A DNA stretch of 64,000 bases, from the NCBI GenBank assembly GCA_964527395.1, contig CAZGQD010000003.1, forward strand, positions 29,124-93,123. Reading direction: 5' to 3'. Below, one piece after another: positions 961-59,903 of this stretch (its first letter is position 1; each line of letters begins with the position of its first letter). Below the pieces are notes generated by a model that worked only from the letters and a program-made list of their open reading frames with translations, was not told the DNA's origin and ran no database searches. The position numbers and the translations under genes were made by a program. The stretch is from an uncultured Methanosarcinales archaeon. Its GTDB lineage: Archaea > Nanobdellota > Nanobdellia > Woesearchaeales > GW2011-AR9.

Positions 961-1189
961 GTACGTATTAAGTTGGCTAATTTCGAGCAAAGCTCTCTTG
1001 ACTTAGTTCATACTTCACTAAGTTTGAGTGTGCTTAGAAAATTAGCACTGCGGCACGGCCATACTCTGATTTGCAATAAAAATTAGGAAAATCCTGCGGA
1101 TTTTGTGTTTAAAATGAAAATTGCAAATCAGTGGCCTCGATGGGCGGCAGTGCTAATTCTCTATATTTTATAGCCAACTTAATACGTAC
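961..1189. repeat. 229-bp nested-palindrome element (MITE-like or structured ncRNA) with 19-bp perfect terminal inverted repeats GTACGTATTAAGTTGGCTA
   Basis: 961-979 is the exact reverse complement of 1171-1189. An inner ~36-nt imperfect inverted repeat (ttagcactgcggcacggcc...tgatttgcaat / attgcaaatcagtggcc...ggcagtgctaat) encloses a ggaaaatcc/ggatttt mini-palindrome. The internal motif cgagcaaagctctc is shared with the element at 39363-39695. Confidence 0.5.
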
Positions 1190-3459: not shown

Positions 3460-6400
3460 TTAATCCAAATCTTTAATACTCTTTAGAATGTCATCGGCTT
3501 TGCCTTTCTTTTCTTTTACTGCAGTTGGGCTTGAACCGCCGTGCCAAGTGAACCTTGGACGCATTTGGATTGGGAAAAGACGTTCGTTGTTATCATCGAA
3601 AAGGATTGCTGCTCCTTTTTGTCTTGGAAGATTGTTTAATTCTACATCAAGACCAGTTCGCATATAACTTTGCATCAGAAGTCCTAGGGCCTCAACATCC
3701 ATTTTAGCTGTAAGTCTGTGGCTTAGGACAATGTCAGATTGAGTCATTACGTCAGTGTGGATCTTTCCTGGCTGTTGTGTTGCTAGTATGAGGGAGATAC
3801 CTGGTTGGCGACCTTCTCTTAAGATTGTGATTAATGGGTCACTTGCAGCAGTTTTACCTTCTCTAGGGAGGAGTTCGTGGCAATTGTGTGCAATTACGCC
3901 ATTTGCTATGAAATTGTGGTTTTGATTTACAGTGATATCGAAGAGTGGTTCAGCTGATTTTGTGGTTCTTTTTTGAATTTTTTCGTAAAAGATATTGTTT
4001 TTTAGTCTTTCTTTAATCCATTTGTCGAAGTTTGGAAAGGATTGGGGCATAGAAACACCACTATTTTTATAAATCCAATCTCTTACTTGGTAACTAGGAA
4101 TATTTAGTTCTTTTGCTATTTTTATTTTTCCCCAGCCAGTTTTTTCTCTGATTTGGAAAGCTTTTTTTCTTAAGTTTTCTCTTTGATTTAAGACGTATTT
4201 TCTGGCTTTAAGGTATTCTAACCATAAAAATCCTGTTTTTTGTTTGATTGAGCAATATCTGTAGCCAACTTTTTCTAAGTATTTTATGGTGTTGTCTACG
4301 CTTTTTGCTAAGGTTATGACTAGTTTAATTGATTTAGTTCCATCTTTTCTGATATTGCCTCTTCTTTGTTTGATTTGGCTGACTTTGATATTAAGGTCTG
4401 AGAAGAGTTTTTTAAGTTGATCAGTGTATTCAACTCCGTTTTCTGTTAGTTCTATGTGTTTATTGCATGAGAATCTGATTGGATTAAAGTCTCCACCCCA
4501 TGTTTTTGATTGTGAAGGAGCCATGCCGTCTGCTCCGAATAATGCTGCTAAAAATTCTGCTTTTTCTTCTTTTGAAGCTTTAGTTAACCATTTTGGAATT
4601 AGCATTTTGATGTTTGTTTTGCTTCCAACTGGAGCCCCTAATTTTTTGAAGTAGTCAAAAGTTTTAGCACTGGCGTTTATTGAGTGACTAGTTCCGTTTA
4701 CTGTTGCAGTTTTTCCTGAGACGTGGGTGATTTTAGAGCTTGTTTTTCTAGAATAGATGTTTGATGAAGTGAAACCTAGTGTTTTTAGGTCTTTTTTGAT
4801 CAAAAGTAGGTCATTTTTGTTTGATTTTCCACTAAAACCAACTTGTTTTGGATTATTACTTAGCCATCCATCTCCGAAAATGTGGCCTAGTAATCTTGCT
4901 CTGATTAGTTTTTTGTCTTGTTTATTTGGGATATTTGTAGGGATTGCAAGTTCTTTAGCATCTTTAGTTTCTTGGAAACCTTTTTTTGTGAATAGTTTGT
5001 GGTCTTCTGTGCATTTTATCTTTCTTCCAGTTTCAGTTGTTAGTTCTATTAGTTGTCTTTTTGGTTTTTTGTAGCTTTTAGTGATATTTTGGAATTCGAA
5101 GTCTTTTGTTTTTTGATTATAGCTCCAGGCTTTTAGTTTTTCTTTATTTTCTACTTTTTTTGTGATTTGTTTTATTGTTAATGTGCCTTGATCTGTAATA
5201 ATTGGGGTGTTTGCAGGGAAACATTCATCTATTGCGAGCCAAACCAAAGGGTCTTGTTGTTTTTCTTTTGTTTCTTTACTAAAATAATGCATTGCTTTGT
5301 CAACACTTTGGAATTCTTCAGATTTTCTGGAAAGCATTCTTTCTTGGAAGAGACGTTTACAGACGAGGCCAGCTACCATGGCTTTAATTTCCCAACCAGA
5401 AGGCATGGTTGCGTATGGACTTACATCTAAAACTGTTACCTGACCACCTTTAACAATGTCTTTTAATGGAGTTCCGTCTTTAGAGAATATTTTCCAGCCT
5501 TTGGCTTTTTCAAATGTGTTAATTACAACAGATTTAGTCACTTTTTGCGCTTCTTTGTCTGCTTTTGTTTGTTCTATTAGGTAATCTATTTCATAAGGTT
5601 CACCTTTATTGTTGGTGTTTAGAACTATTTTGCTGATAAGAACTCCTTCTGCAGTGTTTGATTCAATTTTGAAGGTTTCTAGCCAATCTTCTGGACCAAC
5701 GTCTAAAGGGCTGATTGAGAAAGGAAAGTCAGTAGGAATGCCTTCCTCTTTGTATTTGTAATAGAATCCTGATGGTGTGTAGATTTTCACATCTAGTGAT
5801 TTAGGGTCGAATCCCCATTTTTTAAGGAGTGGGGCATCTTGGTAATTTGGATATTTCATTGTCCAGTAAATACCCATTGTATCGAAAAGGACAATTGAGA
5901 GGTTTTGCTTTACTTCTTTTGGAAGGTCAGCTAAACCTTCAGCGATGGAACCCATGGTGTATGAGTTGTGGACTATAATGTTGTTTGCGATGAAGTTGTG
6001 AGTGTTTGGAACAGTTAAGTCGTATACTTCAAAATTTCCTTCTAAAAGTTCTATTTTGGTGATTTGGTCCCAGATTGCTTCTGAGTTTTGTTTTGATTCT
6101 TTTGGAACTGCAATTTGAGTTTGAATTGGAAGAGTTTGAGCAGCTTGCCAACCTTTTTTTGTTAGAAGTGGGTGCTCAGGAGTTAATTTTATTTGTTTAT
6201 TTGATTTTAGAGTAAGTTTTAGAAGAGTTTTAACTTCTCTTTGATAGAAATGAGTGAAAACAGTTGGGGTGATTTGGTTGTTTTTGTTTAGAGTGAGGAT
6301 TTTTGTTTTGTTTTCTTGGCCTTCTAAATTTTTGATTTTTACTTGTTCTCCACTGTCTAGTTGGATTAAAGTGTCACCATGAAGGCATTTTCCGCTACCT

Positions 6401-6573
6401 CTTTTCCCGCAAAGAAAGATTACGTGGGCTCCTGCAACGTCTAAATAAACTGGATTAGAAAGAGCAGTGGTTTGACCCATCTTTACGAACTGTTTTGCTA
6501 TGAAAATAGTTCCTCTTTTACCGTATTTTTTTACGTCATGTTTACTTCGTCCAATGATCACATCAAAAGCCAT
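3460..6573 (-). CDS. HerA/FtsK-like DUF87 P-loop ATPase interrupted by two inteins (extein about 449 aa)
   Basis: After removing the inteins: N-terminal barrel-like region, Walker A GKRGSGK|S split by intein 1, Walker-B-like LVWLAIDE immediately before intein 2, and a C-terminal LREGRQPGISLILATQQP segment resembling HerA (IAREGRKFGVGLTIVSQRP) and FtsK (GIHLVLATQRP). Confidence 0.65.
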   Translation of the reverse strand: MAFDVIIGRSKHDVKKYGKRGTIFIAKQFVKMGQTTALSNPVYLDVAGAHVIFLCGKRGSGKCLHGDTLIQLDSGEQVKIKNLEGQENKTKILTLNKNNQITPTVFTHFYQREVKTLLKLTLKSNKQIKLTPEHPLLTKKGWQAAQTLPIQTQIAVPKESKQNSEAIWDQITKIELLEGNFEVYDLTVPNTHNFIANNIIVHNSYTMGSIAEGLADLPKEVKQNLSIVLFDTMGIYWTMKYPNYQDAPLLKKWGFDPKSLDVKIYTPSGFYYKYKEEGIPTDFPFSISPLDVGPEDWLETFKIESNTAEGVLISKIVLNTNNKGEPYEIDYLIEQTKADKEAQKVTKSVVINTFEKAKGWKIFSKDGTPLKDIVKGGQVTVLDVSPYATMPSGWEIKAMVAGLVCKRLFQERMLSRKSEEFQSVDKAMHYFSKETKEKQQDPLVWLAIDECFPANTPIITDQGTLTIKQITKKVENKEKLKAWSYNQKTKDFEFQNITKSYKKPKRQLIELTTETGRKIKCTEDHKLFTKKGFQETKDAKELAIPTNIPNKQDKKLIRARLLGHIFGDGWLSNNPKQVGFSGKSNKNDLLLIKKDLKTLGFTSSNIYSRKTSSKITHVSGKTATVNGTSHSINASAKTFDYFKKLGAPVGSKTNIKMLIPKWLTKASKEEKAEFLAALFGADGMAPSQSKTWGGDFNPIRFSCNKHIELTENGVEYTDQLKKLFSDLNIKVSQIKQRRGNIRKDGTKSIKLVITLAKSVDNTIKYLEKVGYRYCSIKQKTGFLWLEYLKARKYVLNQRENLRKKAFQIREKTGWGKIKIAKELNIPSYQVRDWIYKNSGVSMPQSFPNFDKWIKERLKNNIFYEKIQKRTTKSAEPLFDITVNQNHNFIANGVIAHNCHELLPREGKTAASDPLITILREGRQPGISLILATQQPGKIHTDVMTQSDIVLSHRLTAKMDVEALGLLMQSYMRTGLDVELNNLPRQKGAAILFDDNNERLFPIQMRPRFTWHGGSSPTAVKEKKGKADDILKSIKDLD
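3883..5223 (-). mobile_element. large intein (447 aa) with a LAGLIDADG-type homing endonuclease domain
   Basis: Begins CFPANTPIITDQGT after the Walker-B-like DE and ends NGVIAHN followed by Cys. An internal LLGHIFGDGW block matches LAGLIDADG. Confidence 0.7.
5965..6387 (-). mobile_element. mini-intein (141 aa, no endonuclease domain) inserted in the P-loop of the ATPase
   Basis: Begins CLHGDT directly after GSGK and ends IVHN followed by Ser (+1 nucleophile). Flanking extein residues reconstitute GKRGSGKS. Confidence 0.7.
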
Positions 6574-11709: not shown

Positions 11710-11764
11710 TTTTATTTCACCTTTTGTGTGTTTAATACAAAGTTTATGTTTATTTTTTTCTTTG

Positions 11765-11852
11765 TATGTACTCGTCCGTAAATATTTATTAATACTTGGT
11801 TACGGATTCGAGACACAGTTCCGTAAACGAAACTGCGTGTTTAGAACGCAGT
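11765..11852. promoter_or_regulatory. conserved ~65-nt element (copy 1) with mutually exclusive hairpins built from TCCGTAA / TTACGGA blocks
   Basis: gtatgtactcgtccgtaa...cttggttacggattcgagacacagttccgtaa is near-identical to 33926-34016. The TTACGGA block can pair with either the upstream or the downstream TCCGTAA. Confidence 0.45.
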
Positions 11853-15322: not shown

Positions 15323-15654
15323 TGTATTCTCCTCACAAAATGTACTGTAATTATGAAGCCATGTCCATTTAAGTACTTTACTATGACTTTTAGGTATTTT
15401 GCTTTTGATTGTCTATGCTTATAGTAACGATAATATGAATGAACTTGGTGGTCAAAAGAGTAATTTGTGATTTTTATTGGCTCTTTTAGAGTTTCTTTGA
15501 TAAATTCAAGATTATGTTGGACTTCAGGGTGCAAGGAAAGCATAGCTTTCCTGCACAGGAAATTATTAATTTCCTTGTGTTTTGATAGATGATTCCAACG
15601 TTCTTTTGTTAAGCGAATGAATCTTTTTGATTTGTCAATGATTTTGAATATCAT
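15319..15654 (-). CDS. DUF4258-like small toxin-like protein
   Basis: 111 aa; overlaps the downstream DUF2283-like gene by 4 nt; IRLTKERWNHLSKHKE resembles the DUF4258 'T.HA...R..R' block. Confidence 0.4.
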   Translation of the reverse strand: MIFKIIDKSKRFIRLTKERWNHLSKHKEINNFLCRKAMLSLHPEVQHNLEFIKETLKEPIKITNYSFDHQVHSYYRYYKHRQSKAKYLKVIVKYLNGHGFIITVHFVRRIQ

Positions 15655-15848
15655 GAAAGATAATTTTGGAAGAAGTTATTAATGAATAAAGTGGTTCTGG
15701 ATTATTTATATTATAAAATTTTATTAGGTACAAGAAAATTAACAATTTTCTGTACTGAAAATCTTAGATTTTCATGTACTTGAATCTTATTTTGAAGAAG
15801 GTTTAGCCTAAAGTTTTATTATAGAGCTTTGTTTTTCTTTAGTTAATC

Positions 15849-20091: not shown

Positions 20092-21207
20092 ATGGCAGGA
20101 AAAGCAAGTGCAGGGAAAGGAGCAAAGGTTGATGTAGTAAAAAAGATTCAAGATGTTGCTAAAGGTATCTATGATGATGTTCTTTTGCTTAAAAAGCCAG
20201 ATTTAGTTATGCCAATTAGGTCGCTTAGTAATGTAGCTTATAACGAAAAGGATGGGTATTTTCAGATACTTAGTAAAGTTAAAACTCGTACGCTTTCTGC
20301 TACTACAATCAAGACTTTTGCACAGACTCTTAGAATGATGGGTCTTTCTAAAGATTTGATTAAAGGAAAAGATCTTGCAACTAAAAGAGAGGCTTATTAT
20401 GTTTCCAAAAACTGGGGAGATGCTAGGTTCAAAGAACAGCCGGAGTCAGATACAGTAATGGATGATATCGAAGCTATGATGCGAGTTAATCGTGAACAAA
20501 TTGGCTTTGTACCTGAGGAGAAAGGTGGAGCTGTTGCTGGTGCACTTACAGTTATTGATAAAGATTCAGAGACAGGAGAGAAGCTTGAGATTGATTGTAC
20601 CAAATTTGGTTCAGGTGCTTATTCGGTTCCTTCATCAGTAGAGCATTTATCGTTTAAAACAAAAGCAAAGTTTGTACTTGCTATTGAAACATCAGGTATG
20701 TTTGAGAGGCTCAATAAGCATAAGTATTGGAGAAAAGCGAATTGTATTTTGATTTCAATGGGAGGAGTACCAACTCGTGCTTGTAGACGGTTTATTCGTA
20801 AATTGTCTGATGAAAAGGATCTTCCTGTATATGTATTTACGGACGGGGACCCCTACGGTTTTTTCTCAATATATCGAACACTTCGTGTTGGGTCAGGTAA
20901 TGCAGCTCACATAAATGAGTTCTTTTGTGTACCTAGAGCTAGGTTTTTAGGAGTAACTCCGCAAGACATTGTTGATTATAATCTTCCTACTCATCCTCTT
21001 AAAGATGTGGATTACAAAAAAATTAAGGATGTTTTGAAAAATGATCCATTCTGTAAACAACATAAAGAGTGGCAAAAAGCTCTTGCGCAAATGGTTAAGA
21101 TGAAGGTAAGAGTTGAGCAGCAGGCGTTTTCTGCAAAGGGATTGAACTACGTTTTAGAGACTTATTTGCCTGAAAAGATTGCTAACCCTAAGAAATGGCT
21201 GCCTTAG
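20092..21207 (+). CDS. top6A: DNA topoisomerase VI subunit A (Spo11-type)
   Basis: TOPRIM region VYVFTDGDPYGFFSIYRTLRVGSGN and upstream 5Y-CAP region. Start set at MAGKASAGKG, which follows the GC-rich leader. Confidence 0.9.
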   Translation: MAGKASAGKGAKVDVVKKIQDVAKGIYDDVLLLKKPDLVMPIRSLSNVAYNEKDGYFQILSKVKTRTLSATTIKTFAQTLRMMGLSKDLIKGKDLATKREAYYVSKNWGDARFKEQPESDTVMDDIEAMMRVNREQIGFVPEEKGGAVAGALTVIDKDSETGEKLEIDCTKFGSGAYSVPSSVEHLSFKTKAKFVLAIETSGMFERLNKHKYWRKANCILISMGGVPTRACRRFIRKLSDEKDLPVYVFTDGDPYGFFSIYRTLRVGSGNAAHINEFFCVPRARFLGVTPQDIVDYNLPTHPLKDVDYKKIKDVLKNDPFCKQHKEWQKALAQMVKMKVRVEQQAFSAKGLNYVLETYLPEKIANPKKWLP

Positions 21208-22312
21208 GTTGATTAAAATTGTTTACTAAAGATTTTAATCTTTCTTTCTTGTGAGGATATCTGAAGCCAATTTCTTTTTGATATAAGGCGATTTGAGATC
21301 TGCTTTTTATTTCTAATGTATAATAATCGTAGTTGTTGCTATGTTTTTTGTAGAGGTTGAAATTTATGTTTAGTTGTTTTAGAATTTCTTGGATTTCTAA
21401 TAGAATGCCTTTACTTGATTGAGACAAACCAATTACAGGATATTTTTGTTTGTCAATTTTGTTACACCAACCATCTCCATCGAAGAACCCAATAATAAAT
21501 TGTTTTTTTAGGTTCATAGGAGCTTTTTGGATAAGTTTAGGGATTTTTAGTCTTCCTTTTTTGTATCCTGCTGGCATTTCGAATACGTTGTTTAGAAGTC
21601 TGTGTAACATCATACTGGTAAAAAGAAGTCTATACCATCTTCCATTGTAAACTGTTTTTACATTTGTTTTTAAGTTGAATTCTTGTTTTAGTATGTGAAG
21701 AAGAGTTTCTAGAGTGTTTTTCTTTTCATCAGTGACGGTTATTTCCCAGCGAAACCTTTTTTCTTGTTTGTATGTTAAGTTTATGTTTCTTAAAGAACCG
21801 TCTGCGTATAGAATACCTAGGAAGTATGCTAAATCTTCTGTTAGTGTTTTTGGGATTTTGATTATTAATGGAGAGTTCATTGCTCTGAAAAATTTAGCTT
21901 GTTGGAAGCATTGGTTGTAGAGGTCTTTTTCTTCTTTTTTTGTTTTATGGCATTTTTGTTTCCAGAATTTGAGTAATATTTTGAGTTTTTTAATTGGAAT
22001 AGGATATTTTCCTTTTCTCCATGAGTAAAAAGTGGGAGTTGGTATGATTTTAATTAATTCTTTTTGGAATTGACCTTTAGGAATGTTTTGTTTAAGGTCA
22101 ATGTAGATGTCAGAGATGATATTTGAAATCCCATCTATGCATATTGGACTTTTGGTTACGTCGTCTATTTTTGGGTCAATTAGTTTGTTGAAGTAGTTGT
22201 TTATTTCCATGGTCTGAAGTCTTTGGAAAGCTTGCTTATAAGCGTTGTCCGCGCCTGTCCAGTGGGTTGTGGGTCGTCTTTTTAAGCATAGATTTTTGGA
22301 TTTTGAGCACAA
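21188..22312 (-). CDS. free-standing LAGLIDADG homing endonuclease (two LAGLIDADG motifs)
   Basis: LAYFLGILYADGSL and FIIGFFDGDGW motifs. Convergent with top6A, overlapping its stop codon on the opposite strand. Confidence 0.8.
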   Translation of the reverse strand: MCSKSKNLCLKRRPTTHWTGADNAYKQAFQRLQTMEINNYFNKLIDPKIDDVTKSPICIDGISNIISDIYIDLKQNIPKGQFQKELIKIIPTPTFYSWRKGKYPIPIKKLKILLKFWKQKCHKTKKEEKDLYNQCFQQAKFFRAMNSPLIIKIPKTLTEDLAYFLGILYADGSLRNINLTYKQEKRFRWEITVTDEKKNTLETLLHILKQEFNLKTNVKTVYNGRWYRLLFTSMMLHRLLNNVFEMPAGYKKGRLKIPKLIQKAPMNLKKQFIIGFFDGDGWCNKIDKQKYPVIGLSQSSKGILLEIQEILKQLNINFNLYKKHSNNYDYYTLEIKSRSQIALYQKEIGFRYPHKKERLKSLVNNFNQPKAAIS

Positions 22313-27757: not shown

Positions 27758-28117
27758 TTACGAGCTGAGTAATTTCGAGGGAACCAAGTTCGAGCAGAGC
27801 TCTCGTTGCTTTGTTCTTTCATCACAAAACTCTCTTGAGTTTGCTCGTTTCTCGCAAACCTCTTGGATCTTAATTCGTTCCTCATTAAGTTTCTTAATTT
27901 CATTGATTTCTACCCTTATTTTTTGTAATTCTCTTGTTGTATTTATTTGAGCTTTGAGGATTTTTATGTTGTCTTCCAATTCTGATGTAATTAAGTAAAT
28001 ATCAAGTAAAATGATTAGTACTCCAGTAATTAATGGGAGTGAATTTTGTTCTATGCTACCATATAAACTTAGTGAAAAACCGATTACTCCAATTATTATA
28101 TCTCTTGAGGAAATCAT
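27758..28117 (-). CDS. hypothetical membrane protein with coiled-coil tail
   Basis: Two N-terminal hydrophobic segments; overlaps the alternative ORF 27652-27903, so the frame choice is uncertain. Confidence 0.3.
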   Translation of the reverse strand: MISSRDIIIGVIGFSLSLYGSIEQNSLPLITGVLIILLDIYLITSELEDNIKILKAQINTTRELQKIRVEINEIKKLNEERIKIQEVCEKRANSREFCDERTKQRELCSNLVPSKLLSS

Positions 28118-31618: not shown

Positions 31619-31761
31619 GGACCTGTAGCCTAGTCTGGATATGGTTAAAATTGGTTTTTTGCTGATTTTTTCTTAGGATTCATATGGCACCAGCCTTCTA
31701 GTTAGCATGAATTTGCTGATAAGACAGCTGGGGGTCGAGGGTTCGAATCCCTCCAGGTCCG
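31619..31761 (+). tRNA. tRNA-Arg(TCT) candidate with two introns, one in the D-loop region and one at 37/38 in the anticodon loop
   Basis: Acceptor ggacctg/caggtcc, U8-A9, T-arm gaggg-TTCGAAT-ccctc, anticodon stem ccagc/gctgg with loop ct-TCT-a interrupted by a ~25-nt insert, and a ~42-nt insert between the D-loop and the D-stem 3' strand. Confidence 0.5.
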
Positions 31762-33571: not shown

Positions 33572-33937
33572 TTAAGTAGTTTTTTCTTGTCCATTTTCTG
33601 TTTTTTTGTTATTTTTAGTATTAATAAATTGTTCGATTATTTCTTTTTTTGAGGTTTCGATTTGTTCTAATAGATGCCAGTATGAAGCAATGCCTATTGA
33701 AAAAGAGATAGTGAAAATCCAAATGTACCAGTTGAAAGTAAGGCCAGTTGTGCTAAATAAACCAAAAAATATAGCAAGGACAGCTAGACTTTTCCAAACT
33801 TTTTCTAATAATGATCTTATTTTCATAATATTTTTTATTTTTGAAGAGTAGTTTATAACGATTTGTTGTTTGTAGAGGTTGAAGTGAATATACATTTGCT
33901 TTTGGGTAAATGCTAGTATATTTTGGTATATACTCAT
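33572..33937 (-). CDS. hypothetical membrane protein
   Basis: Two hydrophobic helices. Confidence 0.35.
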   Translation of the reverse strand: MSIYQNILAFTQKQMYIHFNLYKQQIVINYSSKIKNIMKIRSLLEKVWKSLAVLAIFFGLFSTTGLTFNWYIWIFTISFSIGIASYWHLLEQIETSKKEIIEQFINTKNNKKTENGQEKTT

Positions 33938-34016
33938 CCGTAACTATTTTCTATAACTTGGTTACGGATTCGAGACACAGTTCCGTAAGAAAAGTTCCAC
34001 TTTCTACTTACGGACC
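33926..34016. promoter_or_regulatory. conserved ~65-nt element (copy 2) with alternative TCCGTAA/TTACGGA hairpins
   Basis: Near-identical to 11765-11852; the second hairpin here is tccgtaag...cttacgga. Confidence 0.45.
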
Positions 34017-34070
34017 AGTATATATGTACTGGAAAGTTTTATTAAGGCAAATGTAATATACTTTTTTTAG

Positions 34071-34556
34071 ATGGGTGGAAAAAGAAAAAAGCAGCTTAAA
34101 TTGGTAAAGTTGCAATTAGTGCTTAGTGTCTTTTGTATGTTTTTAGCAGTTTTTGGTACCTGGTTTATTATGGAAAGAGTAATACTCGATAAGGACAATG
34201 TAAATTCAATAGATTATATAGAGTATAATGGAGTAATGGGTTTGCAAAATCAAGCAGTTTATCATGTGACTGATTTGTGGGCTGAATATGAAGAAGTAAA
34301 TTTTGAGAGATATTTACAGTCAATAGGGATGTCAGAAGAAGAGTATTCTTTTTTGGATGAAAAAGACAGGGATGAAATAAGTGAAGGATATTATAGTCAA
34401 AGTGATAGTTTTCATAATGTTCTTTTAGATGTGAATGAGATCAGTTTTATTTCTTCTTTAGCAAAACTAATGATTTTTTCACTAGGAGTTGTGTTTTTTA
34501 TGATATCTTTATTGTTTAGTTTACAAGGGTATATCAAATACGAAGAAGTAAAATAA
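34071..34556 (+). CDS. hypothetical membrane protein (N- and C-terminal TM helices)
   Basis: Hydrophobic segments at both ends and an acidic middle. Confidence 0.35.
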   Translation: MGGKRKKQLKLVKLQLVLSVFCMFLAVFGTWFIMERVILDKDNVNSIDYIEYNGVMGLQNQAVYHVTDLWAEYEEVNFERYLQSIGMSEEEYSFLDEKDRDEISEGYYSQSDSFHNVLLDVNEISFISSLAKLMIFSLGVVFFMISLLFSLQGYIKYEEVK

Positions 34557-34680
34557 AGACAAATCTACTTTGTATATTCTTGGAAACATAGTTTCCAGAC
34601 GCTGAATTTAATTCAGCATGTTGTAGAGGTTGTTTTTGAGTTGGGCAATGTTTTTAAGTAAAATTCTTTGATAATTTGTT

Positions 34681-37463: not shown

Positions 37464-38717
37464 TTGAGTTCTTTTAGTTTAGTTATGGTTAAGCAGAAAA
37501 ATGGTGGAAAAGGCGCTAAGAAATCTGCTAAGGGTAAAGGATCTACAGAGGCTAATGTCGGACAAAGTCCTCTTGACGTTGCTTGTTCCTCACAAAGTGT
37601 TGTAACTCCATGGGAAGTTAAAGGTAATATTGATTATGACAAACTTGTTCGGGATTTTGGGCTAGTTAAGATGTCTGAGATTAAATTGCCTGCTGTCTTT
37701 AATGAAAATGTTTTATTTCGTAGAGGTTTGATTTTTGCTGGTCGTGATTTTGATCGTATTTTGAAATGTGTCAAAAATGGGAAAGAGTTTGCCATGATGA
37801 CTGGGCTGATGCCATCAGGGAAATTTCATTTTGGTCATAAAATGGTAGCAGATCAAGTTATTTTCTATCAAAAACTGGGGGCTAAAGTATATTTGGCAGT
37901 AGCAGATGTGGAAGCTTATAATTCACGTAATCCAAATATGAAAGAATTACGTAAAGTAGCTATTCAAGAATATCTTACTAATTATGTTGCTCTAGGGCTT
38001 GATTTATCAAAGTGTGATTTTTATTTTCAGTCAGCTCGCTCATTAGATGGAGCAAAATCTAATGCGTATTATTCACTTGCAAATATGTTTGGTCGGCATG
38101 TAACTTATAATGAATTTAAGGCAGTTTATGGTGATGTTGATCCTGGGAAACTTTCTTCGTCACTCCTTCAGGCAGCAGATATGTTGCATGTTCAAGTTGC
38201 TCCTTTTTCTAAGAAACCGGTGCCTGTTATAGTTCCAGTAGGAGCTGATCAAGATCCGCACCTTCGTTTAGCACGAGATCTGGCTAAAAGGTTTAAAGAA
38301 GTTAAGTTTGTGCCACCTAGTTCAACCAATCATAAGTTTATGTCTGGTTTAAAAGGAGGTAAAATGTCTTCCTCTGACTCTAGTTCTTATATTGCGCTTA
38401 CTGATTCTGCTTTTGAGGCAGCTAGAAAGGTTAAGAAATATGCTTTTTCTGGGGGACGTGCTACACTTGAAGAGCATCGTAGACTTGGTGGCGATCCAGA
38501 TATTGATGTAGCTTATCAAATGCTTTATTTTGGAATGGAGCCTGATGATAAGAAGTTGGCGAAGGTTTATGCTGATTATAAATCAGGTAAAATGCTTAGT
38601 GGTGAGCTGAAGCAGTATTTGATTGACAAATTGACTGTATTTTTAGAAGCTCATCAAAAGAAGCGTAAAAAGGCAGCTGCTGTTGTGAAGAGATTCATGA
38701 AGGAGAAAGGGTTTTAG
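37464..38717 (+). CDS. trpS: tryptophan--tRNA ligase (class I aaRS, archaeal/eukaryal type)
   Basis: HIGH-type motif PSGKFHFGH, KMSKS-type motif KMSSSD, N-terminal TPWEV...DYDKLVRDFG block. A length of 417 aa favours TrpRS over TyrRS. Confidence 0.7.
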   Translation: MSSFSLVMVKQKNGGKGAKKSAKGKGSTEANVGQSPLDVACSSQSVVTPWEVKGNIDYDKLVRDFGLVKMSEIKLPAVFNENVLFRRGLIFAGRDFDRILKCVKNGKEFAMMTGLMPSGKFHFGHKMVADQVIFYQKLGAKVYLAVADVEAYNSRNPNMKELRKVAIQEYLTNYVALGLDLSKCDFYFQSARSLDGAKSNAYYSLANMFGRHVTYNEFKAVYGDVDPGKLSSSLLQAADMLHVQVAPFSKKPVPVIVPVGADQDPHLRLARDLAKRFKEVKFVPPSSTNHKFMSGLKGGKMSSSDSSSYIALTDSAFEAARKVKKYAFSGGRATLEEHRRLGGDPDIDVAYQMLYFGMEPDDKKLAKVYADYKSGKMLSGELKQYLIDKLTVFLEAHQKKRKKAAAVVKRFMKEKGF

Positions 38718-39241
38718 TTTGTTTTGTTATTTTTGTTTTGTAAATAAGTTTTGATTGCGTCAAAGCCTCTTGTTCCTATTTTGTCAACAAAGTAAATTCC
38801 AACAGATGTAACGGTTGGTGATACAGAGGCTTTTTTTGTAAAATGAGAATATGCAAGCCTTGCACTGTGACAAATAGTGAAGTAAGCTGCAAATCCTAGG
38901 CAAATTTCATCTAATCCAAAGTTATGGTTTTCTGAGAAGCTATTTAATTTTTGAGCAGCATTGTAAGCACTTTCAGGAGGATTTCTAATTCCCATTGCAG
39001 AAGTAAGGAAAATTGAGTTTGCAATTATTCCTGCAGCTATACTGTCATAAATAGAAAAAGTGTTCTCAGGTAAGTTAGCAAACTTTGCAATTTTAGCTTG
39101 GCGTTCTGGTGGTAGATGAGCTATGCCTAACATAGAAGTAGTTAAAATTGCTGCTTTGTATTTTTTAGGGTGTATTGCCCTATTTTCTGGATTTTGAATA
39201 TATTTTTCTGATAAATCTTTGACTTTTTCTATTAGCTTCAT
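38714..39241 (-). CDS. hypothetical protein
   Basis: 175-aa ORF; 4-nt overlap with the trpS stop. Confidence 0.35.
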   Translation of the reverse strand: MKLIEKVKDLSEKYIQNPENRAIHPKKYKAAILTTSMLGIAHLPPERQAKIAKFANLPENTFSIYDSIAAGIIANSIFLTSAMGIRNPPESAYNAAQKLNSFSENHNFGLDEICLGFAAYFTICHSARLAYSHFTKKASVSPTVTSVGIYFVDKIGTRGFDAIKTYLQNKNNKTN

Positions 39242-39362
39242 TTTGTTGTTATTTTGAGTGTTTTTTATAACTGTTCTGGACTATTGATGTTTTTTGATGT
39301 GTGATTAAGTGTTTTTATCTTCGTAGACTAAGGTTTGATCTTATTTGATCCTTTGTGTTTCT

Positions 39363-39695
39363 CGGCTCTGTAGAAAATCTCACTACGTTCGATGGGGGCG
39401 AGGCCAATGTCGAGCAAAGCTCTCCTGGCTTATTTATCCTCAAAGATTTTTCGGGACTTGACTATTCGCCAAGTTTTCAAGAAAAAATAAATGAATAGGC
39501 TCTTCTCCGTGTTCGTTCGTGCCTCACTCAGGTCGAATTGTATAGCTCTTTCGAAGTTTTAGTGATTCGTGGAAACACAAAGTGTTTCCAGACGCATAAT
39601 TCTTTGAATTCTGCATTCTGCATAGACGCCCCCCATACATACTTAGAAATGGAACATTTCTGGTACCCACTTCGTTAAGGTTTTCTACAGAGCCG
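39363..39695. repeat. 333-bp element with 15-bp perfect terminal inverted repeats CGGCTCTGTAGAAAA; a MITE-like element or a large structured ncRNA
   Basis: Termini are exact reverse complements. Internal long-range complementarity gatgggggcg/cgccccccat. Shares cgagcaaagctctc with the element at 961-1189, and aataggctcttc...ctcaggtcg plus its termini with the 144-bp element at 57294-57437. Confidence 0.5.
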
Positions 39696-39702
39696 TGTTT
39701 CT

Positions 39703-39979
39703 GATGCTAGGTCTTTGTTCTGGCCTTTTGCGATAATTAATGCAAAGTCTTTGGCGCGCTTGCCTCCTCACTGGCAATTACATTATGAAATTACACCAAC
39801 AACAAGCATTTTTGTTCATGAAATAGAACAAAAATTATTGCGTAGTTGTTTAGACCTGCGGTAAGTCTGGCCAAGCGCCATAGGACTTTTATTATAAAAT
39901 CGCAAAATGATGAATTTGCTAAAATTCAGCGTCTGGAAAATGATTTTTCCATAAAGGCCAGCTTAAGTACCCAGCATCG
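39703..39979. repeat. inverted-repeat copy A (277 bp), ~98 percent identical to the reverse complement of 59585-59860
   Basis: Direct base-by-base comparison shows only about 4 mismatches. Contains the TGGAAAA...TTTTCCAGACGC hairpin and the aattgccagtgaggagg motif. Confidence 0.85.
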
Positions 39980-40069
39980 TGTTTCTCGAAAACCTTATAA
40001 GCGATTGTATCTTTTCTATACTAGTTAATTGGTTATAGTGATGGTTAAGAGTAGTTAGAGGTTGTTGGA

Positions 40070-40279
40070 ATGGCTAAGAAAAAAGGTATTTTGAAGAATT
40101 TAGGTTGGAAAGCTAAGCCGATTAGTTCTACGTTTTTTATGACTTCTATTATAGGATTTTTAGCTTCATTATATGCAGTTTATCCAATGAGTGTTAGATA
40201 TGGTTTTTTATTGATGCTCGCATTCGGACTTATGTTTATTGCGTCATTAGTAAGTATGACTAAAGCACCACTTAAATGA
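40070..40279 (+). CDS. hypothetical small membrane protein
   Basis: 69 aa with two hydrophobic segments. Confidence 0.3.
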   Translation: MAKKKGILKNLGWKAKPISSTFFMTSIIGFLASLYAVYPMSVRYGFLLMLAFGLMFIASLVSMTKAPLK

Positions 40280-40291
40280 GGATGGTTAATT

Positions 40292-40921
40292 ATGGCAAAG
40301 AAAAAAAAAGTGAGTAAGAAAAAGGCAAGCTCTAAAAGGAAAGTGGCTGCTCGGAAATCTAGTTCTAAGAAAAAAGTTGTTAAGAAGAAGTCTGCTGTTA
40401 GGGGGAAATCTTCTGCTAAGAGGAAAAGTTCTTCTAGTAGGTCTAAGAGTTCAGGTTCTTCAAGGTCAAAATCTTCAGCTAGTAAAGATTTGTTTTATTG
40501 GAAGTTTCCTAGGCGTGAATTTCAATTACTTCGTGTAGAAATGGCAGTATTGATAGTTTTATCTGGGCTGGTGTTTTTGTATATGTATTTACAGCCTAAC
40601 TTGAATACTTTTGCAGCAGTTGTGTCAGTGATACTGTTTGTGTCAATATATTTTGTAGTATCAGCTGTTTTGCATAAATTACGTAAAGTTGAAGAGATGT
40701 ATGAATTAAGTGCTTCGCATCTTGAGATTCAACGTTATGTGAATGGTAAAAAGACAGATCATCATAAGGTTCCTGTTAAAAAGATTAGTGGGCACAATTT
40801 TGATCACTTTTTTCATGGAGCATATGTAACTTTAGCAGATGGTACACGACATCCATTGTTTTTTGGAAGTTCAGCTGAGAGTCGCCATGTTGAAAGGAAA
40901 GTGAAGAGATATACTAGTTAA
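40292..40921 (+). CDS. hypothetical protein with Lys/Ser-rich basic N-terminal tail and two TM helices
   Basis: KKKVSKKKASSKRK... low-complexity basic region followed by hydrophobic helices. Confidence 0.4.
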   Translation: MAKKKKVSKKKASSKRKVAARKSSSKKKVVKKKSAVRGKSSAKRKSSSSRSKSSGSSRSKSSASKDLFYWKFPRREFQLLRVEMAVLIVLSGLVFLYMYLQPNLNTFAAVVSVILFVSIYFVVSAVLHKLRKVEEMYELSASHLEIQRYVNGKKTDHHKVPVKKISGHNFDHFFHGAYVTLADGTRHPLFFGSSAESRHVERKVKRYTS

Positions 40922-41859: not shown

Positions 41860-42030
41860 TCAATTTAGAGCTTATTTTGGCTGATTTAGAGCAAAAGAAG
41901 GTTGTTTTAAGCTATTTGGGCGAAAAGAAGGCTGTTTTGGCCGATTTAGAGCAAAAGAAGGTCATTTTAGGGGATTTGAGGGAAAAGGAGGCTAATTTGG
42001 GCTTTTTAGAAAGGAAGGTTTTTATTGTGT
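41860..42030. repeat. about five degenerate ~30-bp tandem repeats (gatttagagcaaaagaaggtYRttttRRg...), same family as 12288-12500
   Basis: Direct reading; ORF 41835-42050 is a translation of the repeats and is considered spurious. Confidence 0.6.
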
Positions 42031-42043
42031 TGTTAGAGTTTAG

Positions 42044-42844
42044 TTGTTAATGGTAGAATTAGTTACTTTTGTTCTGGTTGTTTTTGTAGGTCTAATTACT
42101 GGTTTTGTTGATTCAGTTATTGGAGCAGGAGGATTGATATCAATACCTTTTTTGATTTTTACAGGAGTTCCGCCACAAGTTGCTATTGCAACAGACAAAT
42201 TTGGTCTGCTTGGGCATATATTTGGGTCTATCCCTAAGTTTTGGAAGGAGAAAAAGATTGTTTGGAAATATGTCCCTTTGTTGTCTTTGTTGGGGATAAT
42301 TGGAGGGTATATTGGAACTAAGATAATAATTAGTGTGAATGAGGCTGCTTTGACAAAAGTTGTTGGGTTTGCTATCTTGTTTTTGTTGCCAGTTGTGTTT
42401 TTTAAGAAAGATTTAGGTTTGATTAAAAAGAAAGTTTCTAATTTGAAGAAAATAATTAGGTACTAGGAAATCGAGGATTTCCTGTACAGGAAAGCTTCGC
42501 TTTCCTTGTATCCGTTGTATTTACTTGCAATGATTTTTGGAGCGTCTATAAGTGCAGGATCAGGACCTATAGTGTTATTGTTTCTAGTATCTTTTTTTGG
42601 TTTAACTTTTATTCAAGCAAATGCAACAGATCAAATATCTTGGTTTTTTTTGTCTATTGTATCTTTGATAGTGTTTGGAATCAATGGTTTGATTGATTTT
42701 TGGCTTGGAATTGCAATATTGATAGGAATGAGTATTGGAGGTTACTATGATGTGAAAGTTGCTGTTAATAAAGGGAATGTTTGGGTTAGAAAGGCATTTG
42801 TAGTGGTTGTGGTATTGTCTGGGTTGAAATTGTTGTTTTTGTAG
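42044..42844 (+). pseudogene. TauE/SafE (DUF81) family anion permease interrupted by a single in-frame TAG at 42464-42466; pseudogene or read-through/recoding candidate
   Basis: ORF 42044-42466 (N-terminal repeat, GAGGLISIPFL) and ORF 42506-42844 (C-terminal repeat, TTG start) are in the same frame, separated only by TAG plus 39 nt. The combined product would be ~265 aa, the usual TauE length. Confidence 0.55.
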
Positions 42845-45654: not shown

Positions 45655-46033
45655 GTAGATTACGCTAGGAAGCTGACGGTATCTTTATTGATGCTGAGGA
45701 AGGTCCGCCCACCGTAAATGAGCCTCCTTTTTAGGAGCTGGAGAAATTCAGGGCTCTGGAACAGAAACGACACGTCCTAAGTCTAGGCACTTAAAAACAC
45801 TTTGTGTTTTTAGGGCCAGAAAATCATATGATTTTCTTGGAATGATATGTGTGAAGCTTTGCGTGAGTGAAGGGAGTTAATCACTTGACTGTTTGAAACT
45901 TAGGGAACGATGAAACGGCGAAACCGCTCTGGTGCAAGTCTTTGACGCTTAGTCGAATGCTTCCAAATGCTTATCGGTAGTACTTTATTGTGCTGCTTTG
46001 GAGTATACAGAAGGTGGCCTATTGCGTGACTAC
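45655..46033 (+). ncRNA. rnpB: RNase P RNA candidate
   Basis: GC-rich island in an AT-rich region. 5' block GAGGAAGGTCCGCCCACC resembles P4 GAGGAAAGUCCGGGCUCC, internal ACAGAAACGACACG is present, 3' block ACAGAAGGTGGCCTATTGCG resembles ACAGAACCCGGCUUAUCG, and the terminal gcgtgactac/gtagattacgc can pair as P1. Confidence 0.55.
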
Positions 46034-48263: not shown

Positions 48264-48602
<339 letters not shown>

Positions 48603-48674
48603 GTATTTAAATAGTTCTTTTTTGATGTTTCTTTACGATAAGTTTAAATATCAATTGATAATTTTAGTTATCAG

Positions 48675-53658: not shown

Positions 53659-54294
53659 TTAAGAATCTTCGTTTAAAAGGAGCCTTAGGATCACTGCGGC
53701 GCTCCGATCTTCTTTGATTTGGTTGTTTAATGTGAGTTTGAGTAGTTCTTCTTTTGTTTTCCACTCTATTTTGATGCATGAAAATCCAAGATTTTCAGCA
53801 CAGGAAATCTTTGATTTCCTTGTGTTTTCACCATCTTCTAAGGATTGCTCTTTTTGATTGTCTTGGTCAACTGTGATTAGAAAATAGTAGAGGTCCCAAT
53901 CTATAGTAGTTCCACACTTGGAGATGTGGATAAGTTCTGTTTTGATTGGAGTGTATCCAGTTTCTTCTTGGCACTCTTTGATTGCTGCTGCCTTGGATGC
54001 GTTTTTTAGTTGGGTTTTGTTGTTTCTGATTTGTTTATAGTTTTCTAGTTTGTCAAAGACTTTTCCACCTGGGAGTCTATAGTCGTAATCTTTGATTTCG
54101 TATCTGAATTCTTTTGTGATTAGGTATTGGTTTTGTTTGTTTTTTATTATGAGTCTGACACCTGGAGCACGTCTGGCAATTTCAAAAATGACTTTCCTAT
54201 CTTCAAGTTTCATAGGGATTTTTACAAATTCTAGAATTCTGCCTGAAGCGATTATTTCTTCTGGTCCATCTTGAGTCTGGATGTTTGATTTCAT
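53659..54294 (-). CDS. NUDIX hydrolase
   Basis: Nudix box GGKVFDKLENY...AAIKECQEETGY (GX5EX7REUXEEXGU pattern). Confidence 0.75.
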   Translation of the reverse strand: MKSNIQTQDGPEEIIASGRILEFVKIPMKLEDRKVIFEIARRAPGVRLIIKNKQNQYLITKEFRYEIKDYDYRLPGGKVFDKLENYKQIRNNKTQLKNASKAAAIKECQEETGYTPIKTELIHISKCGTTIDWDLYYFLITVDQDNQKEQSLEDGENTRKSKISCAENLGFSCIKIEWKTKEELLKLTLNNQIKEDRSAAVILRLLLNEDS

Positions 54295-57220: not shown

Positions 57221-57293
57221 GTTTGCTGTTTGGCGGTTTGGGCTTTTTTAAAGGTTATGGTTGGCTTGAGGTTATATTAGTAGTTTTTTGTGT

Positions 57294-57437
57294 GGGCTCT
57301 GTAGAAACCCTCAATTCGGGGCGAGGTTGAATAGGCTCTTCTTCGCGTTCGCCTAAACGGCTCAGGTCGTTTGATTAAGCTCTAGCGAAGATAGTCTCTT
57401 TTTGCGGAGGCGCCCCCGAGAGGGTTTCTACAGAGCC
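57294..57437. repeat. 144-bp MITE-like element with 18-19-bp terminal inverted repeats GGGCTCTGTAGAAACCCTC
   Basis: Termini are reverse complements; the interior aataggctcttcttcgcgttcgcc...ctcaggtcg is homologous to the interior of 39363-39695. Confidence 0.5.
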
Positions 57438-57481
57438 TTTGTGTGAAATAGTTTATAAATAGAGAGTTTTGAGGTGTTTAT

Positions 57482-58198
57482 ATGTTAAGATTAATTGGAA
57501 ATGACCTGCCAGAATATGTTAGTTCTGAGGTTGGAAGATTCGTTGCAAAATATAAGGAGGAATTAGGTGAAGACTTTTTGTTTGATCCTAGAATCTGTTT
57601 AACTAGAGGTAATGATTATATTGTTGCTTTAGAATCATTTGGTAGAGTTGGAGCAAAGGTGAATGTTGGAGATGTTTCTGGGATAGAATTATCTGATTTG
57701 AGAAGTGGGCTTAGTCATGCAGTAGCTAATTTGCCTTTTTTGTTAAGGGGAGCTAGTGAGAGAGCTTATGCAATACAGCCTTTTGCGTATCAAAGAGATA
57801 AGAGTGGGTTTGATTTAAGTGAAGCTCCAGAAGGAGCTGATGATTTATTTTTGTATGTAAAATATAAAGGTTCACCTTTGGAAGGGAGAGTTGATGTTTG
57901 TTTTGGAGGAGAACAAGCAAGTGGAATTAATTTTTTGGAGTTGCGTGATACTGGAAGGATTTTAGGTGAAGCAGTAGGAGTATTATATCATGAACTTTGT
58001 GAAAGTTCAAATTCAGTTTTTAGTGAGGGGTCATTATTAAGTGAAGCTTGGAAAGAATGGAATAATGTACTTAGAAATATGCATCCATTGCTTATTGCAG
58101 CAGATAAATTTGGAGATAAGTATGATATGTCTTCTCAAGGGAATTGGATTAAGAGTAGAAGTTTTGAAAGAGTGCCTAAGATTACTCGAGTTTATTGA
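57482..58198 (+). CDS. hypothetical protein
   Basis: 238-aa ORF. Confidence 0.35.
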   Translation: MLRLIGNDLPEYVSSEVGRFVAKYKEELGEDFLFDPRICLTRGNDYIVALESFGRVGAKVNVGDVSGIELSDLRSGLSHAVANLPFLLRGASERAYAIQPFAYQRDKSGFDLSEAPEGADDLFLYVKYKGSPLEGRVDVCFGGEQASGINFLELRDTGRILGEAVGVLYHELCESSNSVFSEGSLLSEAWKEWNNVLRNMHPLLIAADKFGDKYDMSSQGNWIKSRSFERVPKITRVY

Positions 58199-59504: not shown

Positions 59505-59584
59505 GTAGGATGAAGGTTTTGTTTAGATATTGAGTCTAGGCGCCAAGTTCCTTTGAAGTTAGTAAGTCCTGGAGGCATGGATTT

Positions 59585-59860
59585 GATGCTGGGTACTTAA
59601 GCTGGCCTTTATGGAAAAATCATTTTCCAGACGCTGAATTTTAGCAAATTCATCATTTTGCGATTTTATAATAAAAGTCCTATGGCGCTTGGCCAGACTT
59701 ACCGCAGGTCTAAACAACTACGCAATAATTTTTGTTCTATTTCATGAACAAAAATGCTTGTTGTTGGTGTAATTTCATAATGTAATTGCCAGTGAGGAGG
59801 CAAGCGCGCCAAAGACTTTTTACCAATTATTGCAAAAGGCCAGAACAAAGACCTAGCATC
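59585..59860. repeat. inverted-repeat copy B (276 bp), partner of 39703-39979
   Basis: Reverse complement matches copy A with about 4 mismatches. Confidence 0.85.
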
Positions 59861-59903
59861 ATGGATTTGAAAATGTTTATATACGGCTGGACTTTATTTC
59901 TTT

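Follow-up and report, generated by a model that had tools for sequence, protein, structure and literature searches.

E1, E2 and E3, three self-complementary elements lying between genes in the 64 kb stretch of DNA analysed here (the window), are, together with a further repeat termed R1, very probably MITEs, that is, small non-coding DNA transposons, in a marine Woesearchaeota-like genome; we put the probability of this reading at roughly 0.85. An initial annotation had proposed the same for E1, E2 and E3, all of which are found in the window sequence at the places it gave, and its MITE reading is borne out and strengthened by target-site duplications (TSDs) at every insertion, a feature that it had overlooked. 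In the mechanism proposed here, a DDE transposase encoded elsewhere would have cut or copied E1, E2, E3 and R1 into staggered breaks of 8 bp (9 bp in one case) in intergenic DNA, and within 39355-39986 both E2 and one of the two copies of R1, R1a, would have entered the same target of 8-9 bp. The features on which this reading rests are listed in Table 1.

Table 1. Putative MITEs of the window, their shared internal parts and the target copies around E2 and R1a
Feature	Position	Strand	Description
E1	961-1189	.	229 bp putative MITE of a different family from E2/E3, palindromic over almost its entire length
E1/E2 module	39402-39435 (in E1, 975-1008)	+	34 nt, 85% identical, contains the hairpin TCGAGCAAAGCTCTC; also found by blastn
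Left target copy	39355-39363	+	GTGTTTCT(C), flank of E2
E2	39364-39694	.	331 bp putative MITE, long member of the E2/E3 family
E2 left TIR	39364-39377	+	GGCTCTGTAGAAAA; right copy at 39681-39694
E2/E3 core	39491-39558 (in E3, 57327-57392)	+	TGAATAGGCTCTTCTyCGyGTTCG..CTCAGGTCG..AGCTCT..CGAAG
Middle target copy	39695-39702	+	GTGTTTCT, right flank of E2 and left flank of R1a
R1a	39703-39978	+	276 bp putative MITE of a third family, immediately adjoining E2
Right target copy	39979-39986	+	GTGTTTCT, right flank of R1a
E3	57295-57437	.	143 bp putative MITE, short member of the E2/E3 family
R1b	59585-59860	-	inverted second copy of R1, 5 mismatches to R1a

The elements range in size from 143 to 331 bp and are bounded by terminal inverted repeats (TIRs). 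The perfect TIRs of 15-19 bp reported initially measure 19 bp in E1 (GTACGTATTAAGTTGGCTA), 18 bp in E3 (GGCTCTGTAGAAACCCTC) and 14-15 bp in E2, where the length depends on the outermost C/G pair: with the C/G at 39363/39695 included 15 bp are perfect, and otherwise a repeat of 14 bp encloses an element running GG...CC from 39364 to 39694. The boundaries of E1 are as first described, while the start of E3 had been set at 57294, one base too far to the left. R1 carries imperfect TIRs, GATGCTAGGTCTTTGTTCTGGCC and GATGCTGGGTACTTAAGCTGGCC, which match at 17/23 positions. The window contains four exact copies of the string GGCTCTGTAGAAA, each at an end of E2 or E3; the termini of E1 (starting GTACG...) and of R1 (starting GATGC...) are both unrelated to this string and to the rest of the E2/E3 ends. 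None of the elements contains the start of an ORF of more than 60 aa, and all ORFs lying wholly inside an element, including the longest one within E2, are of at most 49 aa. E3 is located between the divergently oriented genes of secF and of ORF 57482, the latter (57482-58198) being an orphan.

Direct repeats of the target flank every element. E1 lies between 8 bp copies of GTTTTTTG (953-960 and 1190-1197), E3 between 8 bp copies of TTTGTGTG (57287-57294 and 57438-57445), R1b between 8 bp copies of ATGGATTT (59577-59584 and 59861-59868), and R1a has an exact 8 bp GTGTTTCT on either side. At the E2 locus the order is GTGTTTCTC-E2-GTGTTTCT-R1a-GTGTTTCTC, which is exactly what is expected if a single target had been hit twice in succession. 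With R1a taken out, the TSD of E2 measures 9 bp, or 7 bp if the ends of E2 are read as C...G, and two orders of events would fit: E2 may have inserted first, with a 9 bp TSD, followed by R1 with an 8 bp TSD inside the right-hand copy of E2's duplication, or R1 may have come first, followed by E2 with a 7 bp TSD and ends read as C...G. Flanks that agree at 8/8 positions at these spacings are met at a fraction of 9.4e-5 of window positions. Of the 79 remaining inverted-repeat pairs (at least 11 bp) in the window, not one is flanked by a repeat of 4 bp or more, and among 1949 inverted-repeat pairs in 378 kb from related Woesearchaeota only two, both with minimal arms of 10-11 bp, are flanked by a repeat of 7-9 bp. 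The elements are therefore best understood as insertions by a transposase that cuts in a staggered manner rather than as coincidental palindromes. Their strong self-complementarity is a DNA-level outcome of terminal and internal inverted repeats and not evidence for RNA genes.

E1, E2 and E3 had been described as a single family that includes deletion derivatives, which holds for E2 and E3 and fails for E1. In a global alignment E3 is colinear with E2 over 139/143 nt at 81% identity, with a score of 113 as compared with 26.5 +/- 5.2 for shuffled sequences, and this end-to-end alignment places the two in one family. They are alike in their termini, in a G-rich subterminal box and in a colinear core, and E2 amounts to the E3 backbone with three extra internal segments of 87, 49 and 41 nt. 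The internal blocks initially reported as common to E1 and E2 and to E2 and E3 were recovered as exact matches of TCGAGCAAAGCTCTC, AATAGGCTCTTCT and GGCTCTGTAGAAA where they had been placed, AATAGGCTCTTCT being exact in E2 and E3 only and TCGAGCAAAGCTCTC in E1 and E2; with up to two mismatches allowed, TCGAGCAAAGCTCTC is found three times where 0.12 occurrences are expected. E1 belongs to a separate family because its termini are unrelated and only the 34 nt internal module is common to it and E2. R1 constitutes yet another family: R1a and R1b are 98% identical, are inverted relative to each other, occupy unrelated sites that have different TSDs, and differ at five clustered positions (39732-39743). 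E1 and R1 differ from E2/E3 in their termini and agree with E3 in the length of the duplication.

The window matches a section of a 98.7 kb marine metagenome scaffold (ENA ERZ23498945, scaffold_226) at full identity, and near-identical contigs are known from several assemblies in ENA, JGI and Logan. Samples containing this population are SRR8062317, SRR8062318, SRR8062323 and SRR9166044. The best identity of its SecF among 5.8 billion proteins is 65-66%, the best matches coming from MAGs labelled Woesearchaeota, Nanoarchaeota or 'archaeon', which points to a Woesearchaeota-type DPANN archaeon without a sequenced close relative. The DNA is AT-rich (about 33% GC) with a strong strand asymmetry, the + strand consisting of 37% T, 28% A, 23% G and 12% C; the octamer GTTTTTTG, seen above as the TSD of E1, occurs 34 times on the + strand of the window and not once on the - strand. 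Several other loci were also noted. A tRNA gene at 31619-31761 (Rfam, 46 bits) has insertions of 50 nt in the D-arm region and of 27 nt in the anticodon loop, and ARAGORN reports no tRNA anywhere in the 64 kb. The archaeal RNase P RNA at 45656-46032 (132 bits) measures 377 nt against a model of 288 positions, with an expansion of about 100 nt in one helix and an insertion of about 38 nt near the 3' end. An ORF of 1037 aa (3460-6573, - strand) matches only intein and Hint splicing domains in Pfam, and a LAGLIDADG ORF of 374 aa (21188-22312, - strand) directly follows the topoisomerase VI A gene; these two ORFs may represent additional selfish elements. Two apparently intergenic repeats complete the list, namely a (TTAG)n / TTAGTTAG tandem run at 48543-48622 and a repeat with a period of 30 nt, TTTTGGCTGATTTAGAGCAAAAGAAGGTTG-like and of about four units, at 41875-41994.

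Several observations speak against the MITE reading. In about 79 kb, the E2/E3 family is present with only two diverged members and E1 with only one complete copy; an autonomous partner, an empty site and further copies were all absent from the material and collections scanned. No partner with matching TIRs turned up in the window or on the adjoining scaffold (about 15 kb). As for empty sites, the elements are present in all contigs from this population, and the closest relatives are those at about 65% SecF identity. A scan for the TIR plus the G-rich box returned no match in a genome contig collection and a single chance match, on a GC-rich eukaryote-like contig, among metagenome contigs, while viral contigs scanned with the TIR consensus, the E1 TIR, the R1 TIR and the E2/E3 core gave either no match or chance matches in phage coding sequence. 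The lack of copies in public collections is probably due to this lineage not being represented in them. Same-population contigs from independent assemblies bear the usual signature of repeats, ending inside E1 at nt 27, 52 and 116, inside E3 at nt 28 and 117, and, for several contigs, inside R1. One contig (L014), recovered from three samples, agrees with the window across the left flank and E1 except at two substituted positions; past the right TIR of E1 its sequence is unrelated from the first base on, and the TSD is missing there, so that either a second copy of E1 or a rearrangement at the end of the element is required. The region beyond this junction (L014 983-1486, joined at window 1189/1190) holds a gene, MKLTVVFSDIEIGSG..., whose only homologue is 60% identical and sits on a 1.3 kb contig, the exact sequence being absent from the collection. 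A presence/absence difference of 344 bp upstream of the window, considered as a further MITE, turned out to be a tandem duplication of a gene cassette: the cassette of about 380 bp (L063 7590-8300 versus L065 6440-6800) encodes small membrane proteins and is duplicated in tandem in one assembly, with copies about 73% identical, and single in another.

E1, E2, E3, the two copies of R1 and one copy of a repeat described below (F4) account for some 2% of the window length, equivalent to about 90 elements per Mb. In a survey from 2024, a Woesearchaeal genome with 105 MITEs per Mb is among those archaeal genomes in which such elements are densest (PMC11602168). In being intergenic, dense, of several families and equipped with TIRs and TSDs, the elements resemble the MITEs of Sulfolobus, Halobacterium and Haloquadratum and the conserved MITEs counted in that Woesearchaeal genome (PMC11602168), a comparison of architecture and not of sequence.

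Which transposase family would move these MITEs is best discussed for E2 and E3. The IS6/IS26 family—with IS26, IS6100 and the archaeal ISH14, ISH29 and ISPfu1 among its members—is abundant in archaea and has given rise to MITE derivatives of 227 and 336 bp (PMC7986276, PMC6807381), entered in ISfinder as MITEBth2 and MITEHarch3. Its TSD is 8 bp long, or 9 bp in a few archaeal members (PMC7986276, PMC6807381), and its TIR consensus, GGTTCTGTTGCAAA, has G1, G2 and G7 as invariant and G10 as conserved positions (PMC6807381). The E2 TIR GGCTCTGTAGAAAA agrees with the inverted repeat of IS6100, GGCTCTGTTGCAAA (PMC10470526), at 12/14 positions, the first eight bases being identical; against the family consensus E2 scores 11/14 and E3 10/14, with G1, G2, G7 and G10 all present. 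The TSDs fit as well, at exactly 8 bp for E3 and 8-9 bp for E2. On the strength of the match to IS6100 and of the 8 bp duplications, E2 and E3 are provisionally classed as IS6-like MITEs, an assignment that carries about even confidence within the MITE reading; given such termini, the most likely mobilising enzyme for the two would be an IS6-like transposase acting in trans. Shared with IS6/IS26 MITEs are the short non-coding body of 140-340 bp, TIRs of about 14 bp that start with GG and have G at positions 7 and 10, the CTGT and AAA motifs, and the TSD of 8 (sometimes 9) bp. Several differences exist, however. The E2/E3 TIR is off consensus at positions 9 and 11, no transposase of IS6 type turned up in the vicinity, extra hairpins are unusually frequent in the interior, and the host belongs to the DPANN archaea, which do not appear among the IS6 hosts named in the family reviews consulted. 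Pfam recognized no transposase domain in 30 window ORFs, most of the largest among them, the Pfam labels of gene calls in about 15 kb of adjoining scaffold include no transposase, and tblastn of about 0.6 Mb of sequence with an IS26 transposase query gave no match. The termini of E1 and R1 show no likeness to the IS6 consensus, and the match is limited to E2 and E3; archaeal IS6-like ends starting with GA and GT, tabulated beside those with GG (PMC6807381), are a weak hint of a link to R1 and E1.

It is possible, if doubtful, that E2 and E3 were mobilised by another family that duplicates 8 bp, such as ISL3, IS1595, IS256 or the ISH1 group of IS5. ISL3 elements and a MITE derived from them, found in Microcystis, start with GGCTCTTCG and generate 8 bp duplications; E2 and E3 share the GGCTCT tip and the duplication length with the Microcystis MITE, and their core contains GGCTCTTCT(T)CG. 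Only the first six bases of GGCTCTTCG are present in their TIRs, however, which leave the ISL3 pattern from position 7 on and agree with the ISL3 inverted repeat of ISArsp7 at 6/14 positions as against 12/14 for IS6100. The match to IS6 takes in G1, G2 and G7, the positions that are invariant in that family.

Simple mobilisation in trans leaves one feature of the elements unexplained: hairpin modules are common to families with different termini and are also found outside TIR-bounded elements. Besides the block common to E1 and E2, a set of E1-like modules lacking the TIRs of E1 is present at L063 6555-6730, where one stretch is also common to R1; the E1 hairpin CTTAGTTCAtrCTTCACTAAG sits inside one copy of F4, an otherwise unrelated repeat of 99 nt; and a GGAAAC..GTTTCCAGACGC hairpin, contained in both E2 and R1, recurs at 34577-34609, downstream of ORF 34071-34556. 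Such recurrence in unlike settings would be expected if the internal parts of the MITEs were functional cargo spread genome-wide, for instance small RNAs, protein-binding hairpins or terminators, the candidates being the E2/E3 core, the TCGAGCAAAGCTCTC hairpin and the GGAAAC..GTTTCCAGACGC hairpin. We consider this unlikely, since no known RNA or regulatory family is matched and mosaic MITEs can form without any function: the sharing of modules would follow from nested mini-insertions or from MITEs recombining with one another. Two further matches lie inside ORFs and, being about 75% identical to the module, were treated as chance, namely a third site of TCGAGCAGAGCTCTC at 27790, within an unannotated minus-strand ORF, and a match at 37550, within the long ORF 37464-38717. 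Tandem CAGGAAA-loop-TTTCCTG hairpins occupy four intergenic sites (15530-15583, 15729-15782, 42461-42514 and 53775-53828), and these as well as the GGAAAC..GTTTCCAGACGC hairpins may be REP-like or terminator-like modules. F4 itself (GTATATACTCATCCGTAAC..GGTTACGGATTCGAGACACAGTTCCGTAAG..CTTACGGACCAGTATATA) is present at 33926-34024, at L066 14059-14157, at L063 1056-1205 and at 11763-11826 of the window. Two of its copies are 100% identical with unrelated flanks, one is diverged or truncated, and the third has an insertion of about 50 nt that contains the E1 hairpin. Its ends are imperfect terminal inverted repeats finishing in TATATA, possibly with TA as the target, and Rfam offers no match; F4 is probably another MITE family, although it could be a small RNA.

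The initial annotation had raised the alternative that E2, there taken as 333 nt, is a large structured RNA, and archaeal SRP RNA in particular, in which case E3 and E1 would be its paralogues or pseudogenes. E2 is close to archaeal SRP RNA in size (about 300 nt), alone among the elements shares with it such a size together with a long closing helix, and folds well below shuffled sequences; furthermore, as the initial annotation had said, the window holds no SRP RNA gene elsewhere, a search of all of it with Rfam (gathering threshold and E<=1) yielding only RNase P RNA and the tRNA. The covariance-model searches proposed for the element (Archaea_SRP, RNase P, introns) nonetheless came back empty: with lax filters and E<=10, 39240-40300, which includes E2, matches neither Archaea_SRP nor any other family, and no element matches an SRP, RNase P, intron or riboswitch model, E1 and E3 attracting only generic hairpin models (snoRNA or miRNA precursor) far below threshold. 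The conserved helix 8 motifs of SRP RNA are likewise missing from E2. Folding is as stable on one strand as on the other, with z-scores against shuffles for the two strands of -5.69/-5.66 in E2, -6.05/-6.82 in E3 and -10.3/-11.95 in E1, which is what inverted repeats in DNA predict and not what a strand-specific RNA would show. While the TSDs at every element follow from transposition, an RNA gene gives no reason for them. Conservation is lacking as well: blastn against 36 related Woesearchaeota loci (SecF neighbourhoods, 378 kb) found nothing homologous to the elements, and a covariance model of the E2/E3 core and backbone, run over 463 kb, recovered only E2 and E3 and none of the 36 loci. 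A few positions of the extended terminal helix have changed on both sides between E2 and E3, a point in favour of an RNA; such paired changes are equally expected of co-evolving transposon ends and do not discriminate. Taken together, these results make an RNA gene at E2 very improbable. A reading of the elements as accidental palindromes or products of misassembly, for which nothing speaks beyond the AT-rich and skewed composition of the window, has next to no probability in view of identical or near-identical elements in independent ENA, JGI and Logan assemblies, fold z-scores from -5.7 to -12 and exact flanking duplications at five insertions.

MITEs of such architecture are already well known in bacteria and archaea; the finding made here is real but ordinary, and the general understanding of these elements is unchanged by it. 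Two more far-reaching outcomes are decidedly unlikely: that a reduced DPANN symbiont maintains several active MITE families with no transposase of its own, relying on an IS6-like enzyme from its host archaeon or a virus, or that the hairpin modules are functional RNA or protein-binding units spread by MITEs. A false lead has been removed, in that neither SRP RNA nor a new large RNA resides at these elements. The annotation of DPANN genomes may benefit, as elements of this kind break assemblies and can pass for RNA genes. For a deeply branching marine lineage of Woesearchaeota, the analysis provides at least three probable MITE families with boundaries precise to the base and with their TSDs, one of them with IS6-like ends, and these bear on the persistence of mobile DNA in symbionts with very small genomes and on where the transposase comes from.
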